Shown: positions 1 to 59,914 of the stretch, piece after piece
How positions within the stretch are numbered: position 1 is the stretch's first letter
Layout of the letters: the number at the start of each line of letters is the position of its first letter
DNA from: a bacterium
Lineage (GTDB): Bacteria > Desulfobacterota > JAPLJL01
Length of the DNA: 64,000 bases
Direction of reading: 5' to 3'
NCBI GenBank assembly: GCA_028713675.1
Contig: JAQTNV010000011.1
Location: 4,411 to 68,410, forward strand
Made by a program: the position numbers and the translations under genes
The notes under the pieces: generated by a model
Told to the model about the DNA's origin: nothing
Databases searched by the model: none
What the model saw: the letters and a program-made list of their open reading frames with translations, nothing else

Positions 1-1
1 C

Positions 2-1495: not shown

Positions 1496-1496
1496 G

Positions 1497-2426: not shown

Positions 2427-2475
2427 GCTAAAAACCGCTTTAAAAATTCTAAATAATTCATACAATAAGAGGGAA

Positions 2476-3417
2476 TTGACGGATCCGTTTAAAATGGTGG
2501 AAAAAATCAGAACCCAAGCTGGCTGGCTTCTCTGGGGCATTCTCATCTGCTGTCTCTGGCCCCCTTCCTCGGCCCCCGCCGCCGGGGTGTTCGTGCTCAA
2601 GAGCAACGACATCCCGGCCTACGAGGAAGTCCTCCGCGGCTTCCGGGAGGTGGTGGGAAACAGCAATTTCGAAACCTTCAGCCTGAAAGGCAACCCCGCC
2701 TCGGCCGCCCAGGCGGTGCCCGCCGCCCAGGCCAGCAATCCGGCGGTGATCCTGGCCGTGGGCAGCGATTCGGCCCGGGTCGCCCGGGAACAGCTGGCCG
2801 GCATTCCCACCGTATTCTCCATGGTCCTGGATCCCTCCGAATTCCAGAAAAACGAAAAAATTACCGGCGTGAGCTTCCAGGTTCCGGCCCGGGCCCAGTT
2901 CCAGACCCTCACTTCCGTACTGCCCCAGGCCCGCCGGATCGGGGTCATTTATGACCCCACCTTGAGCCTTTTCATCATCCGCGACGGCCGCCAGGCCGCC
3001 GCGGCTCTGAATCTGATCCTGGTGGAAAAACCGATCACCTCCAGCAACGAGATCGCCAACGCCATCAAGGAAATGATCTGGACCGTGGATGTTCTCTGGA
3101 TGATCCCGGACCAGACGGTGGTTTCGAAGGAATCCTTCCGCTACATGCTGGAGTCCACCCTGAACCGGAAGATCCCGATCCTGACCTTCTCCCAGAGCTT
3201 TGTAAAAGGCGGGGCCCTTCTGGCCCTGGCCCCCAACTATCAGGACATGGGCCGCCAGGCCGGCCGCCTGGTCCAGAAAATTCTCAGCGGGACCTCCCCC
3301 GGCAGTCTGCCCTCGGCTCACCCGCAGGGGTACCTGTTCCTGAACCTGAATACCGCCAACGCTTTGAATATCAGCGTCCCCCCGGAAATCCTCCAAAAGG
3401 CCGAGCAAATCAAGTAA
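2476..3417 (+). CDS. ABC transporter substrate-binding protein (PF04392 family), tandem paralog
   Basis: It is about 45% identical to the upstream gene (VLWMIPDQTVVSKESFRY..., VKGGALLALAPNYQDMGRQAG). The start is either TTG at 2476 or ATG at 2494. Confidence 0.7.
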   Translation: MTDPFKMVEKIRTQAGWLLWGILICCLWPPSSAPAAGVFVLKSNDIPAYEEVLRGFREVVGNSNFETFSLKGNPASAAQAVPAAQASNPAVILAVGSDSARVAREQLAGIPTVFSMVLDPSEFQKNEKITGVSFQVPARAQFQTLTSVLPQARRIGVIYDPTLSLFIIRDGRQAAAALNLILVEKPITSSNEIANAIKEMIWTVDVLWMIPDQTVVSKESFRYMLESTLNRKIPILTFSQSFVKGGALLALAPNYQDMGRQAGRLVQKILSGTSPGSLPSAHPQGYLFLNLNTANALNISVPPEILQKAEQIK

Positions 3418-3539
3418 ATAAGCCAGGCAGGAAACAATACAAATCCGGGGAAAAATTAAATTTCGGGAGACGCTCTTCTATTAGCGCCTTCTTACCTTCT
3501 AGGCTTCCTAACTTTTAGGCTTTTAGGCTTTGCAGGGTT

Positions 3540-4097
3540 TTACGCTGACGGCTTTTTCCGCCGGATCCGGAGCTTGGAAAGCTTGGGGATTTTCGGCATC
3601 CGGGGGGCCCGGATTTTTCGGCCCGCGGGTTTCTTCGGCAGGACCACTCCCGGATTCATCGGAACGGTCAGGACCGGGAAAAGCGCCCGGCGGACTACCC
3701 GCTCGGCCACGCTCCCGATCAGGGCCCGCGACAACCCGGTCCGGCCATGGGTTCCCATGACGATCAGGCTGGCCTGTTCCTCCCGGGTTCCGGCCAGGAT
3801 CTCCTCGTGGGGATCCCCAAAGCGGAGACGGATCTCGATCTTCACTTTGTCGTTCCCTTTATGCTGGGCCATGACCTTGAGCCGGTCCTCAGCTTCTTTT
3901 TCCATCTCCCGGCGAAGGTCGGCCTCGGTCACAATGCCGGAGACAAAAAGCGGGTAGCTGGCCAGGGTCTGGATAACGTGCAGGAGAACGATCGACGACC
4001 CGCAGTTCTCGGAAAGATGAACGGCATATTCCAGGGCCTTCTCCGAATTTTCGGAGAAATCCGTGGGAACCAGGATCTTGGGGAAGACATTAACCAT
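3540..4097 (-). CDS. universal stress protein (UspA family) with basic C-terminal tail
   Basis: It has a Usp fold signature (ILVPTDFSENSEKALEYAV...LLHV...MGTHGRTGLSRALIGSVAERVVRRA). A Lys/Arg-rich tail follows the domain. Confidence 0.7.
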   Translation of the reverse strand: MVNVFPKILVPTDFSENSEKALEYAVHLSENCGSSIVLLHVIQTLASYPLFVSGIVTEADLRREMEKEAEDRLKVMAQHKGNDKVKIEIRLRFGDPHEEILAGTREEQASLIVMGTHGRTGLSRALIGSVAERVVRRALFPVLTVPMNPGVVLPKKPAGRKIRAPRMPKIPKLSKLRIRRKKPSA

Positions 4098-4200
4098 AGT
4101 ATTTAATTAATTAACAGATTTTGCCGGTCAAGCCAAGGCCCTGTTCGGAAAACACGTAAGGCGTAAGGGGTTATACTCACGTTAGGGGTTTTCAGAAAAA

Positions 4201-4368
4201 CCGGGGGGAAGGTTCTCGCGACGCGAACACTTTGGAGATCAGGCTTCGATAAATTCGACGATAAGGTATCTATCGATACGGGCTAGACCCTGCGGGTCAG
4301 CCTGCTAGATTACGGTAGGAACCTATTGTGCGCGGAGCGAAACCTTCCCCCCAAAAAAGAAAAAGAGC
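4201..4368 (+). repeat. structured interspersed element, copy 1 (GGGGGGAAGGTT...AACCTTCCCCCC termini, A-rich 3' tail)
   Basis: It is about 80% identical to copy 2 at 8173-8367. Conserved blocks are CTAGAC, GGGTCAGCCTGC and GGAGCGAAACCTTCCCCCCAAAAAGAAAAA. It lies 115 nt upstream of and co-oriented with the dipeptidase gene. Confidence 0.6.
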
Positions 4369-4479
4369 TAACGAGTGAGATTAAGAAAGCTGACCGCCGG
4401 CCGAAGAAGGCTTATATGCCGTCTGCGATTTGCCGTCTACCTTTTTTCAGGAATTTGAACAGTGTTAGAATAACCCTTC

Positions 4480-5445
4480 ATGGAAAGAATCGCCGACCTC
4501 CATTCCCACGCCCTCCTCAACATGACCTACATGCGGAAGGACCTGTCCAAAAAACATAAGCCTCCCCTGTTCTGGAATCCCCTCAGGAATCACCTGGATC
4601 TGCCCCGGCTTGAAGCCGCGGGTGTGAAGCTCTCGACCTTCAACATTTACGTTCCCTTCAAGTTTCCCTTTAAAAGCTACCAGGAAGGCGTCCACCGGAT
4701 GGCCGATATTTTTTTGGAATTTATGGAGAAAAACTCCACCCGGATCGGGCATGCCCGTTCTTTCTCCGAAATCGAAGCCCTGAACCAGAAAGGGCGGATC
4801 GCCGCGATCCTGGCGGTGGAGGGCGGGCACATCCTGGAAGGCCGCCTCGAAAACCTCGAATATCTGAAATCCCTGGGCATTCTCTACCTGACCCTCGCCC
4901 ACTTCGTGGATAACGATATCGTGGGGGCGGCCTGGGGAAGCAAGCAGGGCCTGACCGGCTTCGGCAAGGAGCTGATGAAGAACCTGCCCGCCGCGCGGAT
5001 CCTGCCCGACGTGGCTCACACCTCGACGCGGGGTTTTTACGAAATTTTCGAGCACTACTCCGGCCCGGTGATTTTTTCCCACGGCGGGGTCCGCCGCTTC
5101 TGCGACGCGGACCGGAACCTCTCCGACGACCAGATCAAGATGATCGCGCAAAGCCGGGGCCTGATCGGGATCATGCTTTACCCCTGGTACCTGAAGCGTT
5201 TTTCCCTGTTCGGCGGTCCGGAACTCATTTCCGACACCTATAAGCACATCGAAACCCTGATCGGACCGGACCGGATCTGCCTGGGCACCGACCTGGACGG
5301 CTACATCCGGACCGTCCGGGGGGTCCGGGACGTGGCCGACCTCCCCGCCCTGCTTGAACGGATCAAGAAGAACCTCGGGCCGGAGCGGGTAGCAAAGCTG
5401 GCCGGGGAAAATCTTTATAACTTTCTGAAGGAAATAAATTTTTAA
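4480..5445 (+). CDS. membrane dipeptidase (peptidase M19 / renal dipeptidase family)
   Basis: Motifs DLHSH..., LDLPRLEAAGVK, AILAVEGGH and LGILYLTLAHF match M19 conserved blocks. Confidence 0.7.
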   Translation: MERIADLHSHALLNMTYMRKDLSKKHKPPLFWNPLRNHLDLPRLEAAGVKLSTFNIYVPFKFPFKSYQEGVHRMADIFLEFMEKNSTRIGHARSFSEIEALNQKGRIAAILAVEGGHILEGRLENLEYLKSLGILYLTLAHFVDNDIVGAAWGSKQGLTGFGKELMKNLPAARILPDVAHTSTRGFYEIFEHYSGPVIFSHGGVRRFCDADRNLSDDQIKMIAQSRGLIGIMLYPWYLKRFSLFGGPELISDTYKHIETLIGPDRICLGTDLDGYIRTVRGVRDVADLPALLERIKKNLGPERVAKLAGENLYNFLKEINF

Positions 5446-5482
5446 CGGTAGACGGCAGACGGTAGACAGTAGACGGGGTAAA
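5446..5482 (+). repeat. GGTAGAC heptamer array immediately after stop codon
   Basis: The sequence is TAAcGGTAGACGGCAGACGGTAGACAGTAGACGGGG. Near-identical arrays follow the stop codons at 18832 and (minus strand) 16982. Confidence 0.6.
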
Positions 5483-5571
5483 ATCCGACAAGACAATAAT
5501 CATTTTCTTTCTTTCGCGTCCCAACTGCCCAGCGGTGGCAAACTTTGAACCGTGAGCCTTGAACCCACATT

Positions 5572-6195
5572 ATGTTGAACGTTTACGAAATTTTTCCCAC
5601 TATTCTCGGCGAATCCTCCCGAAGCGGGTACCCGGTCGTCCTGGTCCGCCTGACCGGCTGCAACCTCCGCTGCCGTTACTGCGATACCGCCTACGCCTAC
5701 TCCGGCGGGCAGGAGTTGCCTCTTCCGGAAATCATCAGGAGAATCCAGGGACCCGGCCTTTCCCTGGTTTTGATCACCGGCGGGGAACCTCTGCTCCAGG
5801 CCGAAACCCCGGCCCTGATTAAGAACCTCCTGGATTCCGGGATGACCGTTTTAATCGAAACCAACGGCTCGCTTCCCGTCGGGACAGTCGACCCCCGGGC
5901 CGTGATCATTCTCGACCAGAAATGCCCCGGCAGCGGGATGTCCGGCCGGATGGACCCGGCCAACCTGGATCTGGTCCGCGCCCAGGATGAAATAAAATTT
6001 GTTCTTTACGACCGGGAGGATTACGTCTTCGCCCGGGACCTGAGCTTGCGGAAAAACCTGCCCCGGAAATCCCAGGTGATTTTCTCCCCGGTTCACAGTT
6101 TTTTATCACCTCAAGTCTTGGCCGAGTGGATTTTGAAAGATCGCCTTCCGGTCAGGCTGGGTCTTCAGCTTCACCATTATATTGGGGTAAAGTAG
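5572..6195 (+). CDS. queE: 7-carboxy-7-deazaguanine synthase QueE (radical SAM)
   Basis: It has the CNLRCRYCDT (CX3CX2C) cluster motif. ITGGEPLL and a length of about 207 aa fit QueE. Confidence 0.85.
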   Translation: MLNVYEIFPTILGESSRSGYPVVLVRLTGCNLRCRYCDTAYAYSGGQELPLPEIIRRIQGPGLSLVLITGGEPLLQAETPALIKNLLDSGMTVLIETNGSLPVGTVDPRAVIILDQKCPGSGMSGRMDPANLDLVRAQDEIKFVLYDREDYVFARDLSLRKNLPRKSQVIFSPVHSFLSPQVLAEWILKDRLPVRLGLQLHHYIGVK

Positions 6196-6253
6196 ACCAA
6201 AAGATATATTTGTGTATAATAGACCAACGGACATACTTAACGTTTTTTAATAA

Positions 6254-6979
6254 ATGGGGAAAAGAGCGCCTTCTGTTGTCCTCCTGAGCGGAGGCCTGGA
6301 TTCCACGGTGACCGCCGCGGTCGCCCGCCGGGACCGGCCGCGGAATCCCCTGGCCCTGCTTCACGTCAACTACGGGCAGAAATCCCAGGCCCGGGAGCTG
6401 AAAGCTTTTCGGAGAATCGCCGGGGTTTACCGGGCCGACCAGCTTCTCACCCTTGATTTTTCCCACCTGAAAAAAATCGGGGGCTCCAGCCTGACCGATA
6501 CCGGGAGGAAAATTCCGGACCGGCATCCCGGGACCGGTATCCCCACCACCTACGTCCCCTTCCGGAACGCCAATCTCCTGGCCGCGGCCGTCGCCTGGGC
6601 CGAGGTCATCGGCGCCGACCGGATTTATATCGGGGTGAACGAACCCGACTCCCGCCATTATCCCGATACCCGGGCCGAATTCATCCGGGCCTTCGGCCGG
6701 GCGGTCAGTCTCGGGACCAAACCGAAGACCCGGATCACCCTTCATACCCCCCTGATCCGGTTGAAGAAATCCGGGATTGTCCGTCTCGGGCACCAGCTCG
6801 GCGCCCCCTTTCACCTGACCTGGTCCTGCTACCGGGGCGGGCCCCGTCCCTGCGGCCGCTGTTCCAGCTGTCTCATCCGCGGGAAAGGTTTTCAGCAAGC
6901 CGGCCTTCCCGATCCCCTCTCACCGAAGAAATTCCTCGGCCGAAACAAGATCCGTTCTACCAAAATAAATATATTTTAA
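6254..6979 (+). CDS. queC: 7-cyano-7-deazaguanine synthase QueC
   Basis: It carries the SGGLDS PP-loop and a C-terminal zinc-binding CGRCSSC motif. It lies adjacent to queE. Confidence 0.9.
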   Translation: MGKRAPSVVLLSGGLDSTVTAAVARRDRPRNPLALLHVNYGQKSQARELKAFRRIAGVYRADQLLTLDFSHLKKIGGSSLTDTGRKIPDRHPGTGIPTTYVPFRNANLLAAAVAWAEVIGADRIYIGVNEPDSRHYPDTRAEFIRAFGRAVSLGTKPKTRITLHTPLIRLKKSGIVRLGHQLGAPFHLTWSCYRGGPRPCGRCSSCLIRGKGFQQAGLPDPLSPKKFLGRNKIRSTKINIF

Positions 6980-7001
6980 GCGGCGGGCGCCGCCTTTTGT
7001 C
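6980..7001 (+). terminator. putative intrinsic terminator of queC
   Basis: A GGCGG-GCG-CCGCC hairpin starts 1 nt after the queC stop. It is followed by TTTTGTC. Confidence 0.5.
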
Positions 7002-7111
7002 ATCCCCGCGAAAGCAGGGATCCAAGAGATAAAGAAAAATCTGGATTCCCTGGCCGACACGAGCGTCAGCTAGGGCAGGCCGCATCAAGTGCGGAATGAC
7101 GGAATAAGGCG
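6998..7111. repeat. MITE-like double-hairpin element, copy A (GTCATCC-hp...hp-GGAATGAC)
   Basis: Its ends are tGTCATCCCCGCGAAAGCAGGGATCCAa and CTGGATTCC...GCATCAAGTGCGGAATGACGGAATAAGGCG. The same ends occur at 36619-36741, 39694-39753 and 41248-41284, with compensatory stem changes between copies. Confidence 0.6.
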
Positions 7112-7130
7112 GGAAGGCAATCTCGAACCG

Positions 7131-8006
7131 ATGCCGGAAATGAAAAAAAAGACTGCGGATTTTTGTCTCACTTTAGCACTAAAAGACGTGTACAAACCTT
7201 CCACTATTCCCCTGAAAGATAATTCCTCCGTTCGGATCGGGACTTCGTTGACCAACGACATCCTGATCAACTCTCCGGGGATTTCGCCCCGGCACGCCGA
7301 GATCATTTCCGGCCCGGAAGGATTTGTTCTCCGCGAGCCGGGGGAAAACCGGGAACGGAAACTCGCCCCCGGCCAAAACCTGAGTCTGGGGAACCTGACG
7401 GTTTCCCTGGAATCGGGGAAACCCCGGCTTTCCCGGCCGGCCGCGAAAATAAGTCCGGGAAAATCCTCCCCCGCCAGGCTGCGCGTCATCCTCTTCGCCC
7501 TCATCGGCCTGGCCTTGGTTTTTCTTTTCTTTTATCCCGCGCCCTCGCCACGGACACCGCCCTCCCTGAAGGAGGATAGTGTCCCGGAGACAAAAAGCTC
7601 TCCTTCGCCCGGCGGGGAAATGTCCACCCTTCCGCCCGAGCAGAGAATCTCCCGGGCCCGGGCGTCCCTCGCGCTGGGGGAACAGCGGCTCAAGGATTAC
7701 CGGATCAGTATTGAAAACTTGAGCCTGGCCCGGGCGGAATTCCAGAAGGCGATGATTCTGCTGGAAGGCCAGAGCCCCGCCCCGGATTTCCTGGCCGCCC
7801 TGAATGGCCGGCTCCGGCAGACCGAAAGCCTGCTGGAAGAGGAATTCCGCCGGCGGAAGTTTTCCGCCGAGCAGGCCATCCGTTTCCAGGATCCCGACCG
7901 GGCCGAGCTGGAGCTGAAAAATATCCAGAAGCTTCTCAATGTTCCGGACGACCCCCGTTATCGCTACGCCCAGGAACGTCTGAAGGAAATCGGCAGGGCC
8001 AACTGA
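7131..8006 (+). CDS. FHA domain-containing protein (N-terminal FHA, one TM segment, C-terminal coiled-coil)
   Basis: It has an FHA-like block (IPLKDNSSVRIGTSLTNDILINSPGISPRHAEIISGPEGFVLRE). A hydrophobic helix (LRVILFALIGLALVFLFF) follows. Confidence 0.6.
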   Translation: MPEMKKKTADFCLTLALKDVYKPSTIPLKDNSSVRIGTSLTNDILINSPGISPRHAEIISGPEGFVLREPGENRERKLAPGQNLSLGNLTVSLESGKPRLSRPAAKISPGKSSPARLRVILFALIGLALVFLFFYPAPSPRTPPSLKEDSVPETKSSPSPGGEMSTLPPEQRISRARASLALGEQRLKDYRISIENLSLARAEFQKAMILLEGQSPAPDFLAALNGRLRQTESLLEEEFRRRKFSAEQAIRFQDPDRAELELKNIQKLLNVPDDPRYRYAQERLKEIGRAN

Positions 8007-8089
8007 AATGGCATAGCGCATAGAGCATAGGGCACAGAGTAAACACAATAAGCAGCCTCCGGCCCGGAGGGTAGGCAGTAAGCACCCAA

Positions 8090-8125: not shown

Positions 8126-8172
8126 GATAGGAGATAGGGAACAGAGTATTTATTTTATTGGCTTTTCCAGAG

Positions 8173-8367
8173 CCCCGGGGGAAGGTTCTCGCGACACGAA
8201 CTCTTAGGAAATCAGGCCACGATGAACTCGATGACTAAATATTTATCGATACTGGCTAGACACGGTTGCCCCGAGCGTAGCCGAGGGGCGGGTCAGCCTG
8301 CCGCATTTACGGCACGGCACTTATGGTGAGGGGAGCGAAACCTTTCCCCCAAAAAGAAAAAAATGCC
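8173..8367 (+). repeat. structured interspersed element, copy 2
   Basis: It has the same termini and core as copy 1, plus a ~20-nt internal insertion. It lies 53 nt upstream of and co-oriented with FHA gene 2. Confidence 0.6.
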
Positions 8368-11823: not shown

Positions 11824-11848
11824 GGTAGCCGCAACCTTTAGGTTGCGC
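11824..11848 (+). repeat. post-stop hairpin motif GTAGCCGCAACCTTTAGGTTGCG (copy 1)
   Basis: A GCAACC/GGTTGC stem sits 13 nt after the kinase stop. The same motif follows two other genes in sense orientation (23764-23786, 41293-41315 minus). Confidence 0.55.
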
Positions 11849-11924
11849 CATTTTCGCAGGCTTCCCTCGTCCATAATGCCTCGGGATCTGATCGTTAAGC
11901 CTACGGACTTTTTTATTTCTTACG

Positions 11925-12012
11925 ACACTATGGACACGATGGACACTACGAACTCAATGGACGCCTTCCGTCTTACCTTTGACCTTTGAGCTTTCAGCTT
12001 TGAGCTCTTTGC
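11925..12012 (+). repeat. ~75-nt direct repeat (GACACTATGGACAC...GAACTCAATGGACGCCTTCCGTCTTACCTTTGACCTTTGAGCTTT), left copy
   Basis: It is near-identical to 13487-13562, including a 45-nt exact core. The two copies bracket the MFS transporter gene. Confidence 0.7.
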
Positions 12013-12028
12013 TCTTTGCCCTCTGCGA

Positions 12029-13309
12029 CTAGGCCTCGATCTTCGTTCCCTTCGTTTCCGGGAAGGTCCAGATCCAGGCCCCGGTCAGGAGGGCGAAAAT
12101 CGCCGCCAGGGAGATTCCGCCGGAAAGACCGTAAGTCGAGGCGACCGCGATGATGATCACCGGGGTGAAAAACTGGATCCCGCGGGCCAGGTTGAAGGCC
12201 GATCCCATCGCGGTGTTCCGGATTTCGGTGGGGAACAGCTCCGCGAAGAGCGGGCCGTAACCGCTGAACATCCCCGTCCCGAACCCGACCAGGAACATGA
12301 AGCTCAGGATCAGGGGCGGGTATTCGGCCACCAGGCCCCAGCAGAGCGTGATCATGACCAGCCCCAAGGCCCTGATCACCGCGTAAACCGAGTAGGCCGG
12401 CCTGCGACCGAACCGGTCGGCCGCGAACCCGAAGCTCAGGTAACCCAACAACCCCCCGGCCTGGTTAACCAGCATCCAGACCGCCGATTTCGTCATCGAA
12501 AATCCCCGTTGCTCGTGGAGATAGCCCGGAAGCCAGGAATAAGTGAACCAGTAGGCGGACATGTCGAAGATCGCCAGGATCAGGGATTGGATGAAGAGCC
12601 TCCGGTATGTGTGTGAGAACAACATGAAAAATTTATTGCCGCCTTCCTTCTCCGGGGATTTGACCGGGGCCACCCCCGCGGCGACCAGCCGTTTCCGTTC
12701 CAGCCAGATGTCGGATTCCGGAAGCTGTTTCCGGATGTATATCACCAGCAGGGCGGGCAGAAAGGAGATGAAAAAGCACCAGCGCCAGCCGATTTCCGGA
12801 GCGAGGAACCCGCCGATGATGGAAGCCAGGACGATCCCGAAGGGGGCGCCGGTCTGCATGAAGGCGCCGTAGCGGCCCCGAACCCGGGCCGGGAAGGTCT
12901 CCCCCACATAGGTCTGGCCGGTGGCCCATTCCCCCCCGACCCCGAGGCCGGTGATGACCCGGAAAATCAGCAGCACCGCCAGGTTGGGGGCGAACCCGCA
13001 GAGAAAAGTCCCGAGGCTGTAGGTGACAATCGTCCACTGCAGAACCCGCTTCCGGCCGAAATGGTCGGAGAGGATTCCGAAAATCACCCCGCCCAGCGCG
13101 GTCGCGGCCAGGGAAGCGCCCATGACGTAGGAAAGCGCCTGGTGGGAAAGGCCGAGTTCCTTGCCGATCGGCATGAGCAGAAAAGTGAACAGGATGAGAT
13201 CGTAGAAATCAAAGACCCATCCCGCCCAGCTCATCATGAGAATTTTATGATGTTCCCGGGTGGGCTTTTCGTACTCGTTAAGAAATTTGGCCATTTTCCG
13301 TCCCCCCAT
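12029..13309 (-). CDS. MFS transporter
   Basis: It has 12 predicted TM helices and MFS signature spacing (GILSDHFGRKRV, second-half repeat). A second ATG at 13294 is an alternative start. Confidence 0.85.
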   Translation of the reverse strand: MGGRKMAKFLNEYEKPTREHHKILMMSWAGWVFDFYDLILFTFLLMPIGKELGLSHQALSYVMGASLAATALGGVIFGILSDHFGRKRVLQWTIVTYSLGTFLCGFAPNLAVLLIFRVITGLGVGGEWATGQTYVGETFPARVRGRYGAFMQTGAPFGIVLASIIGGFLAPEIGWRWCFFISFLPALLVIYIRKQLPESDIWLERKRLVAAGVAPVKSPEKEGGNKFFMLFSHTYRRLFIQSLILAIFDMSAYWFTYSWLPGYLHEQRGFSMTKSAVWMLVNQAGGLLGYLSFGFAADRFGRRPAYSVYAVIRALGLVMITLCWGLVAEYPPLILSFMFLVGFGTGMFSGYGPLFAELFPTEIRNTAMGSAFNLARGIQFFTPVIIIAVASTYGLSGGISLAAIFALLTGAWIWTFPETKGTKIEA

Positions 13310-13486
13310 TTAGGTCATAGGTGATAGGTTAAAACCCAACACCCAATACCCATCGTGTCTATTGTGTCGTCGTGTTCCTTGTGTCTATTGGGTCGAATTA
13401 TCCAATTATATTCTGACGCTACGGATTTATCCCGAAGGGTTTATCTGAGGGACTCTATGAACCCTAAGAACACAATGGATCATTAT

Positions 13487-13562
13487 TTCGACACTATGGA
13501 CACTATGGACACTATGAACTCAATGGACGCCTTCCGTCTTACCTTTGACCTTTGAGCTTTGA
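13487..13562 (+). repeat. ~75-nt direct repeat, right copy
   Basis: It matches 11925-12012. Diverged relatives occur at 16862-16925 and 63845-63900. Confidence 0.7.
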
Positions 13563-13570
13563 CCTATTAC

Positions 13571-14392
13571 TTATTTCTCCTTCCTCTGCTCCCTGACCTT
13601 CTTGACGATGAAGCGGTTGGCCCAGATATAGGCCCCGGGGAAGATGCGGTAATTGTGCCACATCAGCCAGGAGTCCCAACCCACCACGATGATCGCCTTA
13701 TTTCTCTCCACCCCCCGGAGAATTATCCGGGCGCATTTATCCGGCGCCATACCCTGAAACGGCAGTGCCTGCAGGGCCTTCTCCCGGTCGATGTTCACGT
13801 ATTTCATCGAGGAAAAGATCTGGGTATTGATGAACCCCGGGCAGACCACACTGACCTTCACCCCGTAGGTCTCCGCCTCCGAACGAAGCGAGGTGGAGAG
13901 CCCAACCACCGCATGCTTGGTGGTCGTATAAGGCACCACCGTAGGCCAAGGGGCCAGTCCGGAGCTCGAGCCGGTATTGACGATGTGACCGTGCCCCTGC
14001 CTGATCATCAGGGGGTAAACCGCCTGGACGCCGTTGATCACCCCCCAGAGGTTCACCTCGATCACCCGCCGCCAGTCCGGGAGGGCCATGTCCTTGACGT
14101 CCCCGGTGATCGCGATCCCGGCGTTGTTGAACATGTAATCGACCCGCCCGCGGCTTTGGACCGTCCCGTCCGCCAGGTCCTGCACCGCCTGCGCGTCCGC
14201 GACGTCGAGAAAGACCGCCTGGACCCGGCCGCCGGAGCCGGAGAGCTCCTGCGCCTTTTCCTCCACCAGGTCCCGGTTGATATCAGCCATGATCACCTGC
14301 GCTTTCCGGCGGGAAAGTTCGGTCGAGAGACCCAGGCCGATCCCGGAGGCCGCGCCGGTCACGATGGCGACTTTGTCCGCAAATATATTCAT
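13571..14392 (-). CDS. SDR family NAD(P)-dependent oxidoreductase
   Basis: It has a TGAASGIG Rossmann motif and NNAG. The catalytic Y-x3-K lies in context (YTTTKHAV). Confidence 0.85.
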   Translation of the reverse strand: MNIFADKVAIVTGAASGIGLGLSTELSRRKAQVIMADINRDLVEEKAQELSGSGGRVQAVFLDVADAQAVQDLADGTVQSRGRVDYMFNNAGIAITGDVKDMALPDWRRVIEVNLWGVINGVQAVYPLMIRQGHGHIVNTGSSSGLAPWPTVVPYTTTKHAVVGLSTSLRSEAETYGVKVSVVCPGFINTQIFSSMKYVNIDREKALQALPFQGMAPDKCARIILRGVERNKAIIVVGWDSWLMWHNYRIFPGAYIWANRFIVKKVREQRKEK

Positions 14393-14629
14393 CTCACCTT
14401 TCCATTTATAGGTTATGGGTCATAGGTTATGGGCGAAACGCATCACCCATTACCTGTTATTTGCTACCTGCTACCTGCTTTCTTTTTCTTTCCTTTCTAT
14501 CAGAAATCACGGTTTCTGCAAATATATTGATTACCCGGCGATTTAATGAAAAAATATGCTGGTCCCCAACAATGATTGAATATTCCGGTCGTCTTCCATC
14601 CCGGGAAGGTTGGGGCCGAGGGAGGAAAA

Positions 14630-16275: not shown

Positions 16276-16743
16276 CTATGACCTATCATCGATTATCTTG
16301 AATAACTCCTCGTTTTTCGGGATGTCGCTCATGCTCCTGCTGTAGTAGGAGTATTGAACCTTTCCGTCCTTGCCGATCACGAAAAGCGCGGGCATCCGGC
16401 CGAGCCTGATCAGGTGGACCTTCTGTTGGTAGAGGCCCGCCACCAAGCCATCGTCGTCGGGCAGGCCGATATAGTTCAGGCTTTTTTTCTTCCACATCCG
16501 GGCAAATTCATCCGGGGTATGCTGGCCCACCACCAGGATCTCCGCCTCCCGGGATTTGAATTTCTCGTAATCGGCCTGGAGCACCTCCAGGTGCCGTCGG
16601 GCAAAAGGTCAGCCGAAGCCGCGCAACAGGACCAGCACCACGATCTTTTTTCCGAGATAATCGGAAAGTTTCACTTCCCGGCCCTGGTAATCCTTCAGGG
16701 TGAAATCCGGGGCTTTTGTCCCCGCCGTGATGTCGCTCATCAT
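16276..16743 (-). CDS. peroxiredoxin-like 2 (SelU/PRXL2-type) thioredoxin-fold protein with in-frame TGA at the active-site position (candidate selenoprotein, otherwise pseudogene)
   Basis: A strong SD (AAAAGGAGACC) precedes the ATG at 16743. Forty-four codons (MMSDITAGTKAPDFTLKDYQGREVKLSDYLGKKIVVLVLLRGFG) run to a TGA at 16611..16609. The same frame continues (PFARRHLEVLQADYEKF...) for 102 more codons of Prx-like sequence. The TGA sits where the family has the first Cys of C-P-F-C. A 7-bp hairpin (CCUGGAG-GUG-CUCCAGG) lies 17 nt downstream of UGA. Confidence 0.5.
16575..16591 (-). promoter_or_regulatory. candidate bacterial SECIS-like hairpin downstream of in-frame UGA
   Basis: The hairpin is a perfect 7-bp stem with a G-containing 3-nt loop. 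Its apex is about 25-27 nt from the UGA, within the spacing range of bacterial SECIS elements. Confidence 0.4.
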
Positions 16744-16934
16744 GGTCTCCTTTTCGAATAATTAGGTGATCGGTTGTAGGTCATAGGTTATAGGTTATGG
16801 GTTAAGGAAAACCCAACCCCCGGGCTTCTTTAAAACCCAAGAAACCCAACGGACCGTTTTTGTTCTTTCGACACTATAGACACAATGGACACTATGAACT
16901 CTATGAACGCCTAACCTCTTACGCCTCACATCTC

Positions 16935-16990
16935 ACGCTTAGCGGCCTTCTGTCTACCGTCTACCGTCTACCTTCTGCCGTCTACCTTCT
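16935..16990 (-). repeat. GGTAGAC heptamer array overlapping the stop codon of the HIT gene
   Basis: The minus strand reads AGAAGGTAGACGGCAGAAGGTAGACGGTAGACGGTAGACA. The TAG stop lies inside the first unit. Confidence 0.6.
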
Positions 16991-17461
16991 AACTTTTTTC
17001 AGCATCCTGGCCGTCTTGGCCAGCTCCGCCGGGTCCCGCATCCGGACGAGTTCCCCCGGGGCTTCCTGGATCTTCTCCAGGGCGTTGAAAAAACGGTCTA
17101 GGAGATCCCCGCTATAAGTCGGGATCAGGAAAATATGCACATGCGGGATCCTCCGGCCCCGGGCATACATGCAGACAAAATCCGGTTTCAGCGTCTTGCT
17201 GATCTTGCGGGCCACCGTCCGGGCCGTCCGGAAAAGATCCATCGTCTCTTCCTCCGAAAGATCGTGCCACCAGACCACGTGCCGCTTCGAGATCACCAGG
17301 CAATGCCCCTGGGCGAAGGGGAAAATGTCCAGGATCGCGAGGGAATGTTTGCCCTCGTGAACCCGGTGGGCCCGGGCTTTCCCCGCGACGATATCGCAAA
17401 AAGCGCATTTCTTACCGTGGGTTGCCGCCATAATTTTTCCTTTCCTCCCGGTTACTTTCAT
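16982..17461 (-). CDS. HIT family (histidine triad) hydrolase
   Basis: It has the HVHIFLIP histidine-triad motif. An N-terminal Cys pair (CAFCD) is typical of HIT proteins. An internal ATG at 17431 is an alternative start. Confidence 0.8.
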   Translation of the reverse strand: MKVTGRKGKIMAATHGKKCAFCDIVAGKARAHRVHEGKHSLAILDIFPFAQGHCLVISKRHVVWWHDLSEEETMDLFRTARTVARKISKTLKPDFVCMYARGRRIPHVHIFLIPTYSGDLLDRFFNALEKIQEAPGELVRMRDPAELAKTARMLKKVRR

Positions 17462-18831: not shown

Positions 18832-18862
18832 AGGTAGACGGTAGACGGCAGACCCTAGACGG
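18832..18862 (+). repeat. GGTAGAC heptamer array immediately after stop codon
   Basis: The sequence is TAAaGGTAGACGGTAGACGGCAGACCCTAGACGGGGAAAACC, about 80% identical to 5446-5482. Confidence 0.6.
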
Positions 18863-18905: not shown

Positions 18906-18968
18906 AGTTAAATTGATGTCATCCTGAGCCCGCCCCCGGCGGGAGAAGGATCTCGCTTTTATCTTTTC
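18906..18968 (+). terminator. GTCATCCTGAG...GAAGGATC hairpin element followed by T-tract (likely terminator of the TRAP SBP gene)
   Basis: Nested stems ATCCT/AGGAT and GCCCGCC/GGCGGG are followed by CTCGCTTTTATCTTTTCGG. Family members occur at 36071-36210, 40209-40236 (-) and 55948-55972. Confidence 0.5.
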
Positions 18969-19015
18969 GGTTCTTTGTCTTCGACCCTATCTCCTATCTC
19001 CGATCTCCTATCTTC

Positions 19016-20659
19016 CTACTCAAGTATCGCCCCCTTCGCGGCGGAGCTGACCATCCGGACATATCTCTGCATGTAGCCGGCCGGCAACTTTTTCGGTTTC
19101 GGTTTCCAGTCCTTCAATCGCTCCCGGATTTCATCATCGGTCAGCCTGACCTCCAGGGTCCTTCCGGGAATGTCGATCGCGATTTTATCGCCTTCCCGCA
19201 CGGCGGCAATGGGGCCGCCCACGCAGGCCTCGGGAGAAACGTGCCCGACGCAGGGTCCGGAGGTGGCCCCGGAAAACCTCCCGTCCGTCACCAGCGCCAC
19301 CCGCTTGAACCCGGCGAGGTCCAGGCCCATCGTTACCGCCAGGGTCTCCGGCATCCCCGGCCCGCCCCGGGGGCCCTCGTTGCGGATCACGATCACGTCC
19401 CCGTCATTGATGTTCCCCTCGCGGATCGCCGCCAGGCAATCGGCTTCCGCCTCGAAAACCCGCGCCCGGCCGACAAACCGGTGCATTTCCGGGTCGACCG
19501 CTGACTGCTTGATCACCGCCCCTTCCGGGGCCAGGTTCCCGAACAGCACCACCAGGCCCCCCTCCGGGTAAAAGGGCTTGTTCCGGGGACGGATCACGTT
19601 CTCGTCCAGCACGCTGGCCCGGTTCAAAACGTCGCCCAGCTTTTCCCCCGTCACGGTCCGGGCGTCCAGGAAGAGATCGTCGGCCAGCACCTTCATCACC
19701 GCGAGGACTCCACCGGCCTGGTAGAGGTCTTGGAGCCCATGGGGACCGCAGGGCGAGATTCCGCACAGGGTGGGGATCTCCCGGTTCAGCTCGTTGATTT
19801 TGGCCAGGGGCAGATCGACCCCGATTTCGTGGGCGATCGCCGGCAGGTGCAGGATAGAATTGGTGGAGCCCCCGATCGCCAGGTCCACCGAGAGGGCATT
19901 GTCGATCGCCTTCCAGGAAAGGATCTTCCGGGCCGTAAGCCCCTCTTCCACCATCTCCACGATCCGTTTGCCCGTCCTCCGGGCCCAGAGCAGCTTGTCG
20001 GCGTGAAAAGCGGGAACATTGGCGGAACCCGGGAGCGAAAGCCCGAGGGCCTCGACCAAGCACTGGAAGGTGTTGGCGGTCCCCATCACCTCGCAGGATC
20101 CGCAGGTGGCGCAGGTGGCCACCGCCATTTTGTCCCGGAGATCTTCGTAATCACGGTGGGAGATGCTGCCCTTCATCCGGGGGCTGAACCGGATCTGGAA
20201 GGAACCCGGTCCGCCGGTCAGGAAAATCGTGGCCAGGTCCAGGCGGGCCGCGGCCATGATCATTCCCGGGATGATTTTGTCGCAGGAGGCAATCATCACC
20301 ATCCCGTCGAAAAGCATGCTTCGGGTGTGGATCTCGATCATATCGGCGATCAGTTCCCGCTGGGGCAGGACAAAGCGCATCCCCTCGTTCCCTTCCGTGA
20401 GGCCGTCGCAGGGGGCGGGCACGTTGAATTCAAAGGGAATGCCCCCGGCGGCCTGGATCCCCTCTTTGACCCTCTCGGCCAGCTGCCGGAGGTGCATATG
20501 CCCGGGGTTAAACTCGGTCTGGGAATTCGCCACCGCGATAATCGGCTTTTCCGCCAGTTCTTCGACGTCCACCCCCGTTCCCTTCAGGATGGAAAGCCGA
20601 ACCGCGCTGATGGGGAAATCGCCGGTATCAAAGATCGGCCCGCTCTTGGGTTTCTTCAT
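19016..20659 (-). CDS. ilvD: dihydroxy-acid dehydratase
   Basis: It shows full-length similarity to IlvD/EDD family signatures (CDKIIPG, Cys ligands, SGGPGM-like blocks). Confidence 0.9.
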   Translation of the reverse strand: MKKPKSGPIFDTGDFPISAVRLSILKGTGVDVEELAEKPIIAVANSQTEFNPGHMHLRQLAERVKEGIQAAGGIPFEFNVPAPCDGLTEGNEGMRFVLPQRELIADMIEIHTRSMLFDGMVMIASCDKIIPGMIMAAARLDLATIFLTGGPGSFQIRFSPRMKGSISHRDYEDLRDKMAVATCATCGSCEVMGTANTFQCLVEALGLSLPGSANVPAFHADKLLWARRTGKRIVEMVEEGLTARKILSWKAIDNALSVDLAIGGSTNSILHLPAIAHEIGVDLPLAKINELNREIPTLCGISPCGPHGLQDLYQAGGVLAVMKVLADDLFLDARTVTGEKLGDVLNRASVLDENVIRPRNKPFYPEGGLVVLFGNLAPEGAVIKQSAVDPEMHRFVGRARVFEAEADCLAAIREGNINDGDVIVIRNEGPRGGPGMPETLAVTMGLDLAGFKRVALVTDGRFSGATSGPCVGHVSPEACVGGPIAAVREGDKIAIDIPGRTLEVRLTDDEIRERLKDWKPKPKKLPAGYMQRYVRMVSSAAKGAILE

Positions 20660-20689
20660 AATTTCTCCTCTTCAGATAAAAACAGGCCA

Positions 20690-20850
20690 AACGTCTTGGT
20701 CGAGTTCAAAGTTCACGGTTCAAGGTTCAAGAATCGTAGGGGAGGGCCTCGTGCCCTCCCAAATAATCTTTTTTTTCAGGCGGGGATAAACCCCGCCCCT
20801 ACATAATTAAAATTTCAAACCTTGAACTGTGAACCTGGAACGTTGAACCT
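20690..20850. repeat. inverted pair of GTTCAAG-type heptamer arrays bracketing two GC-rich hairpins
   Basis: GTTCAAAGTTCACGGTTCAAGGTTCAAG pairs with CTTGAACTGTGAACCTGGAACGTTGAACC. The central hairpins are GGGAGGGC/GCCCTCCC and GGCGGGG/CCCCGCC. Confidence 0.6.
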
Positions 20851-20864
20851 CTATTCCTTTGATT

Positions 20865-21629: not shown

Positions 21630-21740
21630 TGGCCCCTTAATTATTTTTCGTCTTTCGTTATGGATACGCGGCTATTCTTTTTCCAACCACCCAGCCACCC
21701 AACCACCAAGCCACCTTCTTTTTTTGTTCTCTGTGCCTGG

Positions 21741-22415
21741 TTATTTGTATGTATTTAAATACCCCTGGATGTAACGCCGGACCGATTCGGCCGGCTGGTA
21801 GATTCCGAAATGGCCCTCGCAGAGGATATCCGGCTTCAATTCGAGGATTTTCTGCATGCTGGCCCTCCAGGCGTTGAGATCGGAACGGAAGCTCAGGTCA
21901 AAGGGCCCGTGGATGTCCTGCCCGAAAAGAATCTTTTTGCCTCCGGTCTCCAGCAGGGCTACCATCGAACCGGGGGTATGGCCGGGGGTGTGAATCAGCT
22001 CCAGCTCCCCCCCGGCGAACTTGAGCTTCTCCCTCTCGCCGATGACCACCTTGTCCAGCTTAATTTTTTTCAGTTTAATTCCGTACCAGCTGGAAGCCGT
22101 GAAAGCCGGATCCCCGCTCTCGATGAACGGGGCGTCTTCAGCGTGCGCCACCAGCCGGCAGCCGGATTCCTCCTTAACCTGGCGGGCGGCCCCGATATGG
22201 TCCACGTGGCCGTGGGTCAGGATGACAGTGTGAATATGGTCAGGATTAAATCCGGCGGCGAGGATATTGTCCCGGATCCGGGGCCAGCCCGGCCCCGCCC
22301 CGCAATCCACCAGGACCAGATCCCCGAGGTCGGCCAGGTAAACCAGGCAGTCCCGGTCGTCGGAAAGGTCGCTCCCCCCCACCAGGTAAACCCCTTCGCA
22401 AACCTTGCTGGACAT
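21741..22415 (-). CDS. MBL-fold metallo-hydrolase
   Basis: It has the ILTHGHVDHIG metal-binding motif. Confidence 0.8.
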   Translation of the reverse strand: MSSKVCEGVYLVGGSDLSDDRDCLVYLADLGDLVLVDCGAGPGWPRIRDNILAAGFNPDHIHTVILTHGHVDHIGAARQVKEESGCRLVAHAEDAPFIESGDPAFTASSWYGIKLKKIKLDKVVIGEREKLKFAGGELELIHTPGHTPGSMVALLETGGKKILFGQDIHGPFDLSFRSDLNAWRASMQKILELKPDILCEGHFGIYQPAESVRRYIQGYLNTYK

Positions 22416-23763: not shown

Positions 23764-23786
23764 GTAGCCGCAGCCTTTAGGCTGCG
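23764..23786 (+). repeat. post-stop hairpin motif (copy 2, GTAGCCGCAGCCTTTAGGCTGCG)
   Basis: It matches 11824-11848 with A->G and T->C compensatory changes that keep the stem. Confidence 0.55.
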
Positions 23787-23864
23787 TGTAGTGGTCAAAC
23801 CTAATCGATTCAATAAATAAGAGGCATGCATCTAGCCTGATAATAGGCAACAACAGGAGTCAGA

Positions 23865-28305: not shown

Positions 28306-28405
28306 AAAAGGGAGCCCGCCAGGGGCTCCCCTACGTTTCATATCTGACTTTTAAAGGTTTTTTTCTTAATTCTTTGCCCTTTGCTCTCTGCCCTTTGCTC
28401 TTTGC

Positions 28406-29506
28406 CTATTTTTTGGCCGGGTCCACGTCCGGATCCAGGTAGGGCAGGAAAGCCTTCAGCTTCCCCTTCTCCTCTAAAATTTTCATCGCCATGTCCCGGT
28501 TGGTGGGAGCGACTTCCTTGGCTCTTTTCGACCGGACCATCTTAAACGCCTGCTCCGGGCACCCGGTCACGCACAGCCCGCAGCCGATGCAGCGCTTCGG
28601 GTCCAGCACCGGCCGGTCCTTTTTCATCGTGAGCGCTTTCATCGGGCAGCGTTTTTCCACGCAGATCCCGCAGCCGGTGCAGGCTTTCCGGTCGAGCTTG
28701 GGGACGAATCCCGAATTGGAGAGCACATTGGGGTTCCCGTGATGGGTCATGGCCCGGAGGAGGCCGCAGCAGCAGGTGCAGCAGTTGCAGATGAAGGTCA
28801 GCTTGTCCTGGGCGTTGTTCACCTGGCGCACGAGGCCCAGGTCGTCAAATTTCTTGAGCATCTGCTTCATCTCGTCCTTGGTCAGGTAGCGCCCGTATCC
28901 CCTCTCCACCAGGAAGGTGCAGGTATCGTCGAACATCATGCAGGACTCGGTGGGGTTGTCGCATTTCCGCATCGCGCTCCGGCAGGCGCAATGCGCCACC
29001 CCCACCACCTTGGCCCGGTCGATCATTTCGTAGACCTTTTCGTAGGGCAGGGTCCCCTGTTCGCTCGCGACCTCTTCCCCGACCGGGATGATCCGGGAGA
29101 ACGGCATGGACTTGGAGCCGAACTCCTTGCAGGCTTTCGAGAGGTATTTCTGCCAGAGCGCGGCCAGGCGGTCGATGGTGGGGTTTCTCTCCCCCTTCAT
29201 GAAAGGAAATTCAAATACCCCGGGCATGATCGGGACCAGGGCGTACTGTTTCTCCCCTTCCCTCTCCTTGTAGAAGACCATCCCTTTGTCGGCAAGGGAT
29301 TCGAGCCGTTTCACGGCTTCCTCCGCCTTGACCCCCGCCCGGCGGGCGACCGCCTTCACCGGGAAAGGCCGGAACCCGAGGCCGAGGGCCACCTTGGCCT
29401 CCTCCGGGGTGAAGAGGATTTTCAGGATCTCGATGATCTCAGGGGCCGGCGGACAGCCGGCGGGGTGCTTGTCCAGAAGCTCTCGCAAACCTTCATAAGC
29501 GTCCAT
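28406..29506 (-). CDS. 4Fe-4S dicluster domain protein (paralog of 22492..23667)
   Basis: It has CNCCTCCC, two ferredoxin-type Cys motifs and the shared block YALVPIMPGVFEFPFMKG. Confidence 0.6.
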   Translation of the reverse strand: MDAYEGLRELLDKHPAGCPPAPEIIEILKILFTPEEAKVALGLGFRPFPVKAVARRAGVKAEEAVKRLESLADKGMVFYKEREGEKQYALVPIMPGVFEFPFMKGERNPTIDRLAALWQKYLSKACKEFGSKSMPFSRIIPVGEEVASEQGTLPYEKVYEMIDRAKVVGVAHCACRSAMRKCDNPTESCMMFDDTCTFLVERGYGRYLTKDEMKQMLKKFDDLGLVRQVNNAQDKLTFICNCCTCCCGLLRAMTHHGNPNVLSNSGFVPKLDRKACTGCGICVEKRCPMKALTMKKDRPVLDPKRCIGCGLCVTGCPEQAFKMVRSKRAKEVAPTNRDMAMKILEEKGKLKAFLPYLDPDVDPAKK

Positions 29507-30805: not shown

Positions 30806-30825
30806 AAATTGCAGATTGCGGAATT

Positions 30826-59912: not shown

Positions 59913-59914
59913 AA

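Follow-up and report, generated by a model that had tools for sequence, protein, structure and literature searches.

Heptamer repeats have been known since 1990, and a 2015 paper could still state that almost nothing had been published on them. Here we describe a 64-kb stretch of the chromosome of an uncultured Desulfobacterota bacterium (positions 4,411 to 68,410 of contig JAQTNV010000011.1, assembly GCA_028713675.1; hereafter the window, in whose numbering all coordinates are given) in which the spacers between genes are crowded with short tandem arrays of 7- and 9-nt units. A first-pass annotation, made from the letters of the sequence, had flagged the spacer at 16744-16981 and described the arrays as a genome-wide, family-structured intergenic repeat system. 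Our analysis found the arrays to be real, to recur across the lineage and to follow a positional rule at gene ends, and they probably belong to the class of intergenic heptamers already described from other phyla.

The short tandemly repeated repetitive (STRR) heptamers of Calothrix, Anabaena and Nostoc go back to Mazel et al. (1990, as cited in PMC4692102). In the survey of long simple sequence repeats (LSSRs) by Mrazek, Guo and Shah (2007), as represented in PMC4679880 and PMC4692102, heptanucleotides were the most abundant of the 5- to 11-nt repeats, lengths that are not multiples of three were excluded from genes, polymerase slippage was the proposed generator, and seven bases came out as the length of slip favored in many bacteria. 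Rehm et al. (2015; PMC4692102) described GGGAATC in Xanthomonas and GGGGAYT in Nostoc PCC 7120, about 90% of the arrays being intergenic and four units being the mode. In their data, the G-rich strand lies "almost exclusively" nearer the 5' neighboring open reading frame (ORF), whatever the orientation of that ORF, such that the repeat follows stops at 0-50 bp on the coding strand (overlap included) and precedes starts at 0-50 bp on the non-coding strand (PMC4692102). The same study reported 70-75 convergent inverted pairs, depletion between divergent ORFs and variation among related species; G-quadruplexes were demonstrated and have been proposed as the explanation of these heptamers, and no function was identified. 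The TAACTGA repeats described by MacGregor (2015; PMC4679880) occur with 2-6 copies per set in marine Beggiatoaceae, some cyanobacteria and Bacteroidetes; they are intergenic, often mixed with other heptamers, frequently placed directly 5' of starts that lack a canonical ribosome-binding site, and patchy in their phylogeny. Outside this class, the Borg tandem repeats are characterized by Schoelmerich et al. (2023; PMC9879509) as pervasive, rapidly evolving and independently arising direct repeats. Because bacteria are generally poor in short tandem repeats (2025 survey, PMC12699852), the lineage described below is an outlier.

Arrays Are Dense, Intergenic and Family Structured

We ran Tandem Repeats Finder (TRF) on the window and on 30 dinucleotide shuffles, with each coding and non-coding segment shuffled separately. 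The window gave 92 rows in comparison with a shuffle mean of 19.7 (maximum 30). Of these, 32 had period 7, where the shuffles predicted 2.6, and the periods 7, 9, 14, 18 and 21 combined accounted for 69 rows against 5.7 in the shuffles (maximum 10). Although non-coding DNA makes up only 15-17% of the window, 28 of the 32 period-7 rows were intergenic; arrays covered 18.2% of the intergenic bases and 0.8% of the coding bases, and self-identity at a lag of seven was 0.316 in intergenic and 0.249 in coding sequence. Arrays are 15-72 nt long and have 2-10 copies, with a modal copy number of 4, and the heptamer words are mostly not enriched outside them. At least one array was present in 28 of the 42 spacers of at least 60 nt. 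The first-pass statement that nearly every intergenic region consists of such repeats was thus right about their intergenic and non-random character and overstated their extent, which is two-thirds of the spacers. All 15 unit families that it named were recovered, each at every position and on the strand assigned to it.

The recurrence of units was assessed on 53 non-coding period-7 arrays from the window and two relatives (98 kb of lineage sequence), allowing for rotation and strand and using 300 nulls. Identical units were shared by 23 pairs of arrays where about 2 were expected (null maximum 6-13), and 112 pairs agreed at one mismatch or less, against about 32 expected. Single-linkage clustering at the latter threshold placed 32 of the 53 arrays in one cluster with the rough consensus GGT-S-A-W-R, and smaller families were formed by GGTAGAC, GGCAGTA, GTTTCGR, GATTGAC, CAGGTAG and CGACCGC. 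A limited set of units therefore recurs on both strands above chance, and the arrays are family structured as the first-pass annotation had it; the scan and the clustering that it proposed show a roughly 12-fold excess of arrays over shuffles and families that recur above chance. A 72-nt composite of a nonamer array, a linker and a CTTTGAS array is found at 11923-11994 and 13489-13560 with 97% identity and is partly repeated at 16863-16912. Apart from this module, a BLAST comparison of spacers against spacers found no longer dispersed repeat containing arrays. The over-representation of GGATTTT in the window proved to be a codon-usage effect.

The window is ordinary chromosome, encoding PurA, RpoN, PTS enzyme I, S-adenosylhomocysteine (SAH) hydrolase, RtcB, an IlvD-like protein and QueC. 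No gene for a transposase, a repetitive extragenic palindrome (REP)-associated tyrosine transposase (RAYT) or a reverse transcriptase was found among the genes of the 64 kb; Rfam covariance models at the gathering score matched nowhere in the window, and a tRNA scan found nothing. Two familiar repeat types were considered and rejected. Clustered regularly interspaced short palindromic repeats (CRISPR) have repeats of 23-50 nt with unique spacers, whereas the units here are contiguous and 7-9 nt long. In phase-variation (contingency) repeats, the tract lies in the promoter or 5' coding region of surface or restriction genes and its copy number switches expression, whereas most arrays here adjoin the stops of housekeeping genes (IlvD, dipeptidase, HIT protein, amylase, DUF362).

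Arrays Have a Fixed Polarity at Gene Ends

Arrays were classed as adjacent when the nearest gene end was at most 15 nt away, which gave 29 arrays at stops and 7 at starts. Read in the mRNA sense, 27 of the 29 arrays at stops had more G than C (P = 1.6e-6; purine content 0.66 on average), while C exceeded G in all seven at starts; the search for strand and position bias suggested by the first-pass annotation thus revealed a fixed polarity at gene ends. Six arrays overlap the stop codon and encode the last residues together with the stop, and the bias was unchanged without them. Given the polarity at both ends, spacers tend to read 5'-G-rich...C-rich-3' on both strands, and this layout was the same in convergent, divergent and both tandem arrangements (Fisher P = 1.7e-4). 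The numbers of arrays per kilobase were 7.8 in convergent, 4.2 in tandem and 3.0 in divergent spacers.

Shine-Dalgarno-like content was partial among the stop-adjacent arrays (12 of 29), and several genes with a C-rich array immediately 5' show no visible Shine-Dalgarno sequence. The idea that arrays provide stops in all three frames was rejected, as 8 of the 29 do so and 10 hold no stop at all, whereas the G excess fits 27. Seeding by duplication of the stop codon was likewise rejected, since at 5445, 8006 and 18831 the stop of the gene does not keep the phase of the unit. Over 260 arrays, the G-rich strand had cleaner units in its 5' half than in its 3' half, with 0.67 vs. 0.81 mismatches per unit (P = 0.01); an apparent difference in the "first phantom unit" of the same test was an artefact of partial terminal copies.

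Strong folding (z <= -3.4 in comparison with shuffles) was predicted for 7 of 17 array-bearing spacers, among them 20660-20864, 30806-30941, 35279-35426 and 59913-60073, whereas the other 10 fell short of that value and several folded no better than their own shuffles. That arrays are frequently arranged as inverted pairs is thus borne out for a subset of spacers and is overstated as a general description. Promoter and terminator scans of the window performed at chance level, and the arrays cannot be placed relative to transcript ends by them.

Some genes take their last codons and stop from heptamer arrays, namely 33587-35278 (+), 16276-16743 (-), 16982-17461 (-) and 56311-57384 (-). The array-supplied ends include GCAGGTAGCAGGTAG, GATGATAGGTCATAG in AhpC and, in all five genomes, (TAAGCAG)n following the APH-like gene. 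Because several genes end inside arrays, C-termini in the lineage may be remodelled by array turnover.

Dense Arrays Are a Trait of the Lineage

We compared about 135 kb of lineage sequence in all, and 15 kb of the sister clade. The PurA of the window is identical to a protein of an NCBI metagenome-assembled genome, on a 74.8-kb contig. PurA relatives of the window fall into a group with 87-93% identity, two sister contigs with 71-72% (L079 and L080), and a remainder of at most 58% that comprises Deltaproteobacteria, Desulfobacterales, Syntrophobacterales and Geobacter. Per 10 kb, the window has 5.0 period-7 arrays, L001 and L002 (metagenome-assembled genomes from Lac Pavin sediment) have 6.5 and 8.4, L078 (a Joint Genome Institute metagenome) has 4.7, and L081, L082 and L083 have 6-13. 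The two sister contigs have none, and there the genes lie close together. In 75 control loci from other phyla, retrieved with an IlvD-like query, the density was 0-1.7 per 10 kb, the exceptions being two contigs of less than 5 kb with one array each. These counts support dense arrays as a trait of the whole lineage and not of one locus. They also rule out an assembly artefact, since the arrays are shorter than a read and are carried by seven independent assemblies from different projects, some of them base-for-base identical.

Comparison of orthologous spacers, also suggested by the first-pass annotation, found different arrays at the same position in relatives. The window and L001/L002 have syntenic genes with 83-95% identity, yet their spacers are unalignable. 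Arrays at the same position differ in unit, number and length among the three, and the families recur elsewhere in L001 and L002. At the flagged spacer, the window has the units TAGGTNA, GACACTATG and GTCTACC, L001 has (GCTCATY)x11, and L002 has GCTATNY. L078 is closer (genes about 90-95% identical), and some of its arrays are base-identical to those of the window, for example AGATTGACGATTGACGAATGACGATTGA past the DUF362 stop. A GTTCAAG inverted pair, in the purA-DUF362 spacer, and a CGAAACY array are present as blocks in L078 only, the window having nothing there. Differences of whole units are seen among the window, L082 and L078: GGTGAAA has about 4 vs. 5-6 copies, CTTTGAS about 3 vs. 5, and TCAATCG 4 vs. 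5. Even between L081 and L082, whose purA genes are 98.4% identical, the spacers are non-homologous at two loci; one of the two swapped spacers holds in L082 an element resembling a miniature inverted-repeat transposable element (MITE) that occurs three times in the window.

These spacer comparisons indicate that slippage-type change, decay, gain and loss of blocks, and wholesale replacement of spacers all occur. The differences between homologous arrays amount to whole units, as is typical of simple-sequence repeats that change by slippage, and the arrays therefore do not stand apart from microsatellite biology. The first-pass contrast with random microsatellites is accordingly correct in that the arrays are non-random and confined to spacers, but not in their mode of change between relatives, which is microsatellite-like.

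Similar Arrays Occur beyond the Lineage

A pattern scan with (GGTSATR)3 matched at least 120 stretches of metagenome sequence and 42 contigs classed as viral (162 loci examined). At least four period-7 arrays of several families were found at 43 of the 162 listed loci; these 43 span 26-71% G+C, and none of them is similar to this lineage. With crude ORF calls, stop-codon polarity was seen at unrelated metagenome loci (50 vs. 23; P = 0.002) and was not evident among viral-classed contigs (7 vs. 7). The notion of a universal unit pool across phyla found weak backing and was set aside, with 8 exact matches vs. 4.4 and 98 one-mismatch matches vs. 75.

One metagenome contig, L102 (Ga0315285_10001594, positions 1-8030, 51% G+C), is without nucleotide or protein similarity to the lineage sequences compared. 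Its repertoire is nearly that of the lineage (GCATAGG, GTTTCGA, GGGCAAA, AAGTTCA, GACCGCG, ATTGACG, GGTGATG and the nonamer AGTGTCCAT), and it alone among the loci compared shares most unit families with the window. It also has very long 9-nt arrays of ATTGGTTTA with 13-18 copies. Several IMG/VR contigs classed as viral (L205, L207, L219, L221 and others) have 9-12 period-7 arrays each, of several families.

The Flagged Spacer and Other Features of the Window

On the mRNA strand, the flagged spacer reads (GGTAGAC)x5.7, the period-14 G-rich repeat, (CATAGTGTC)x4, the hairpin 16843-16817, (TAACCYA)x6, a Shine-Dalgarno sequence and the ATG, with the hairpin sitting between the G-rich and the C-rich arrays (Table 1). 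TRF and inspection of 16763-16991 found the first-pass account of this site to be accurate. The AhpC/TSA gene has an in-frame TGA at codon 45, inside a GFG-x-PF motif whose position we take to be the expected site of the catalytic cysteine; as read from the sequence, its product is likely a selenocysteine protein.

Table 1. Positions of the flagged spacer with its flanking genes, of arrays elsewhere in the window, and of copies of the MITE-like element
Feature	Position	Strand	Remarks
AhpC/TSA-family peroxiredoxin gene	16276-16743	-	Pfam E=7e-24
Flagged spacer	16744-16981		separates two minus-strand genes, HIT-family and AhpC/TSA
(TAGGTNA)x6	16763-16804	+	G-rich on +, C-rich on mRNA strand; 20 nt 5' of AhpC/TSA start
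Terminator-like hairpin, 12 pairs and T-rich tail	16817-16843	-	consensus match; such matches not above chance overall
Nonamer array (GACACTATG)x4	16870-16905		family also at 11924, 13490, 63802/63862
Period-14 repeat ACGCCTAACMTCTC	16907-16938	-	C-rich on +, G-rich on mRNA strand
(GTCTACC)x5.7 on +, i.e. (GGTAGAC)x5.7 on mRNA strand	16952-16991	-	TRF
HIT-family gene	16982-17461	-	stop codon overlapped by array 16952-16991
(ACGGTAG)x4.6	5445-5476	+	abuts stop of M19 dipeptidase gene 4480-5445(+)
(GCATAGN)x4	8011-8039	+	4 nt past stop of gene 7089-8006(+)
Composite module: nonamer array, linker, CTTTGAS and GCTCTTT arrays	11924-12019	-	3' of MFS gene 12029-13309(-)
(TAGGTSA)x2.7 then (ACCCAAY)x2.7	13311-13352	+	1 nt 5' of MFS gene start; TAGGTSA array kept in L001
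Composite module, second copy	13490-13565	-	ends 5 nt from stop of SDR gene 13571-14392(-)
ATAGGTTATGGGTC x2 then (TACCTGC)x4	14408-14479	.	divergent spacer
(GGTAGAC)x4.3	18833-18862	+	1 nt past stop of DctP-like gene (end 18831, +)
(AGATAGG)x4.6 on minus strand	18986-19018	-	overlaps stop of IlvD-like gene 19016-20659(-)
GTTCAAG-family inverted pair	20704-20731 and 20818-20850	.	encloses two small hairpins; fold z = -6.8, -5.0
Period-8 array CCAACCAC x4	21683-21715	-	G-rich on mRNA strand; 25 nt past stop of gene 21741-22415(-)
(GGCAAAG)x5 on minus strand	28372-28406	-	overlaps stop of gene 28406-29506(-)
GTTTCGR inverted pair	30834-30926	.	arms from 30834 and 30899; convergent spacer; fold z = -4.3, -6.0
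Array run CGACCGC, GTCTGTCTG, TACTGCC, CTATGCC-type	31765-31942	.	reaches RtcB stop (31943, -)
AAGAGNC array and (CTCTATG)x4	33457-33572	.	divergent spacer; CTCTATG array 14 nt 5' of start 33587
Five arrays: GCAGGTA, GGTGGTTA, AAACGAAAT, GCGCTTT, ACCTATC	35264-35414	.	convergent spacer; fold z about -5; GCAGGTA array provides stop codon of gene 33587-35278(+)
(GTTTCGR)x4.6 on minus strand	36250-36281	-	6 nt past a stop
Nonamer array (CGAGAAAGG)x4.6 on minus strand	37223-37263	-	1 nt past alpha-amylase stop (37265, -)
(ACCYATG)x2.7	56260-56278	-	32 nt past APH-like gene stop; expanded in L083, L078
Inverted pair (GATTGAC)x3.9 and (TCAATCG)x3.7	59924-60069	.	arms start 59924, 60044; 11 nt past DUF362 stop and 4 nt before next start, respectively; fold z = -4.4; left arm base-identical in L078, matching arm kept also in L081
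(TCAAAGG)x2 after stop and (TTTCACC)x5 before next start	60527-60652	.	copy numbers differ in L082; arrays replaced in L081 and L078
Nonamer inverted pair GTCCATNGT / ACACTAYGA	63802-63890	.	arms from 63802 and 63862; 42 nt past stop 63759
MITE-like element	4200-4370	+	window
MITE-like element	8170-8360	+	window
MITE-like element	55990-56250	-	window
MITE-like element	~960-1215		L082
MITE-like element	~3215-3560		L083

Other repeats share the spacers with the arrays. The MITE-like element, about 170-260 nt long, carries terminal inverted repeats of 12 nt (GGGGGGAAGGTT...AACCTTCCCCCC) and has a tail rich in A. Every copy in the window lies 5' of a gene and in the same orientation as that gene. 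The element is present or absent between strains with purA identities of 98-99.8%, is duplicated in L083 and has no Rfam match; the three window copies align well, and the L082 and L083 copies entered the alignment with poor coordinates. A hairpin repeat resembling REPs, GGTAGCCGCAACCTTTAGGTTGCGGCTACC (head GTAG, tail CTAC), occurs at ~11825-11855, 23765-23795 and 41290-41320 and also in L001 spacers. Two further hairpin families are GTCATCCTGAGCCCGCC...GGCGGGAGAAGGATC, at 18916-18953 and 36100-36200, and CTGGATTCCGG...CCGGAATGAC, at 36690-36740, 39715-39750 and 41235-41275, the latter 97% identical to a copy in L002.

Tandem repeats of longer period are found at 36109-36163 (a perfect 27-nt duplication), 36611-36669 (21 nt, x2.8) and 40227-40280 (21-22 nt, x2.5), all three within a stretch of low G+C. 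This stretch, ~36000-41000, has a G+C content of 0.47-0.52 vs. ~0.59 and encodes several proteins without a Pfam match together with a lipase-like hydrolase and an antitoxin of the Phd/YefM type; it is possibly an acquired island.

Origin of the Arrays

We consider it probable, though well short of certain, that the arrays belong to the known intergenic heptanucleotide class (STRR/LSSR) as a dense member with many families, resized by slippage and spread by duplication and recombination. The marks of that class, including the Xanthomonas and Nostoc repeats, were all found here: tandem 7-mers, non-coding bias, recurrence over 98 kb, polarity, convergent pairs and variation. Units are seen to change by single substitutions, which then spread through their array. 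Slipped-strand mispairing at replication would add and remove units, and local duplication, template switching and recombination between spacers would give rise to inverted partners and shared families. Genes would be purged of period-7 arrays, because these shift the reading frame. Most single arrays are probably filler that the cell could do without and that has enlarged the spacers of the clade; the subset in inverted pairs would form long hairpins, as RNA or DNA, in 3' untranslated regions (UTRs), much as REP elements do. As to the polarity, we weakly prefer growth of the array at the 5' end of its G-rich strand until constrained sequence is met, since the cleaner units of the 5' half are what growth toward the neighboring gene would give.

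Several observations speak against this account. Slippage from random seeds predicts neither that unit families recur at unrelated positions and in different genomes nor that entire arrays, or inverted pairs belonging to a known family, stand in one genome at sites that are empty in a relative, and some copying or selection step is therefore needed. The GATTGAC array is base-identical where genes differ by 8-10%, more conservation than neutral filler should show. The gradient in unit quality is a small effect over the 260 arrays and not significant within the lineage alone; roles in 3' UTRs and as hairpins are conjectural; sites resembling canonical terminators are no more frequent in the window than chance predicts; and the absence of arrays in the sister clade is based on just 15 kb.

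The arrays could instead be selected cis-acting RNA or DNA elements, either heptamer platforms for a single-strand-binding protein (cold-shock and S1-type domains bind about 7 nt each) or UTR elements for termination, stability or translation, an explanation that we find possible but doubtful. The polarity would then reflect function. Such elements fit the strict polarity at stops and starts, the preference for 0-15 nt from stops, the perfect preservation of some arrays across 8-10% gene divergence, the strong folding of a subset and the sharing of families above chance, as well as the genes with a C-rich array upstream and no Shine-Dalgarno sequence, a situation that MacGregor saw for TAACTGA (PMC4679880). 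However, the unit at a given gene is not kept among close relatives: the flagged spacer has three entirely different sets of arrays in three genomes, and strains that are nearly identical have exchanged spacers. The many unit families, dozens of them, would moreover require dozens of binders, the neighboring genes are unrelated housekeeping genes with no candidate binding protein encoded nearby, and the polarity holds whichever way the genes point, something that a role at the transcript level alone would not demand.

It is improbable that the arrays represent termini of short non-autonomous mobile elements, resembling MITEs or REPs and bacterial interspersed mosaic elements (BIMEs), with heptamer terminal inverted repeats and nested insertions. 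Inverted pairs of one family do flank unrelated cores, as GTTCAAG does at 20704-20850 and in the purA-DUF362 spacer of L078, a strand-symmetric G-rich...C-rich layout is expected from inverted termini, and a true MITE-like element and REP-like hairpins are found in the same spacers. But apart from the 72-nt module, the arrays lie outside longer dispersed repeats and have no conserved element boundaries, and most are single or paired with a different family. The insertion in L078 has no target-site duplication, the 64 kb encode neither transposase nor RAYT, and change by whole units is not a signature of transposition.

Comparably slim chances attach to an active polar process that writes the arrays, extending the G-rich strand unit by unit at its 5' end until a gene is met, and that is common to many phyla and some phages. 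If true, it would explain the orientation rule and the four-copy mode shared by Xanthomonas, Nostoc, this lineage and metagenome contigs of 26-71% G+C, as well as a clade with inflated spacers beside a compact sister.

That the arrays exist because their G-rich strand forms G-quadruplexes, as proposed for the Xanthomonas and Nostoc heptamers, is very hard to sustain. The polarity and the four-copy mode are as in G-quadruplex-forming repeats, and 23 of 96 arrays have at least four GG runs, but none of the 96 has four GGG runs and many units contain isolated G only (GCATAGA, GATTGAC, AGCAATG, GTTTCGA); quadruplexes of two tetrads with 5-nt loops have little stability. Chance, biased composition or an artefact of assembly can be dismissed, as nothing but the shortness of the individual arrays favors it, the excess over dinucleotide shuffles is 12-fold and control loci of similar G+C lack arrays.

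If the arrays are a member of the known heptanucleotide class, as we prefer, they add to it a lineage with about 10-20 times the array density of Xanthomonas and with dozens of unit families and nonamers. In this lineage, the polarity and the four-copy mode persist where a canonical G-quadruplex is impossible in each of the 96 arrays, and because the proposed structures cannot form, the orientation rule needs another cause; the lineage is thus a useful natural control for the old question of the origin and function of heptamer repeats. The series of relatives (purA 99.8%, 98.4%, 92% and 90%; sister PurA protein about 72%) shows the birth, slippage, decay and replacement of arrays, and because graded relatives show changes at orthologous sites, these dynamics are measurable. 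In practical terms, such arrays break short-read assemblies and mislead the calling of gene ends, several of them supplying the stop codon, and they could serve as strain markers.

Comparison with Known Repeats

REP and BIME elements are extragenic, occupy transcribed untranslated regions past stops and between convergent genes, are rare between divergent genes, and form inverted pairs and hairpins; the REPs themselves are imperfect palindromes of 20-40 nt, conserved in sequence and associated with a RAYT transposase. The arrays resemble them in extragenic siting past stops and between convergent genes, in inverted pairs and in the capacity to form hairpins. They differ in being head-to-tail 7-mers without a conserved palindrome, in a 64-kb window without RAYT. 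Like the tandem repeats of Borgs, they are pervasive, fast-changing, independent in origin and typical of one kind of genome, whereas Borg repeats also occur within genes, where they give disordered protein regions, and belong to an archaeal host; the arrays here are almost strictly non-coding and keep a fixed 7-nt period.

Closer to the arrays are the TAACTGA repeats, with which they share intergenic heptamers of few copies, mixed units and placement of some before starts without Shine-Dalgarno sequences. There, one unit dominates and lies mostly 5' of starts, whereas here stops outnumber starts by 29 to 7 and TAACTGA is not a family. The LSSR survey, as represented in the papers that cite it, describes no family structure, polarity or this lineage. 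The cyanobacterial STRRs are likewise several heptamer families tandemly amplified in the intergenic DNA of one lineage, and they have been used as a lineage fingerprint; they belong to another phylum and have other units, and a polarity rule is not known to have been described for them. The STRR2 unit is TTGGTCA. Written as GGTCATT, it is one mismatch from the GGTCATA found here, maybe by coincidence.

The Xanthomonas and Nostoc heptamers share with the arrays the 7-nt unit, the four-copy mode, the intergenic bias, the polarity rule, the convergent inverted pairs, the divergent depletion and the variation between strains. They consist of essentially one unit family per genome, in contrast to the dozens of families and the nonamers here, and number about 186 arrays per 5 Mb in comparison with about 5-8 per 10 kb; their repeats have GGG tracts, whereas arrays with four GGG runs number 0 of 96 in this lineage. 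The first-pass term "system" implies something new and dedicated, whereas the anatomy and the positional rule of the arrays match those of the known heptamers of cyanobacteria, Xanthomonas and Beggiatoaceae.

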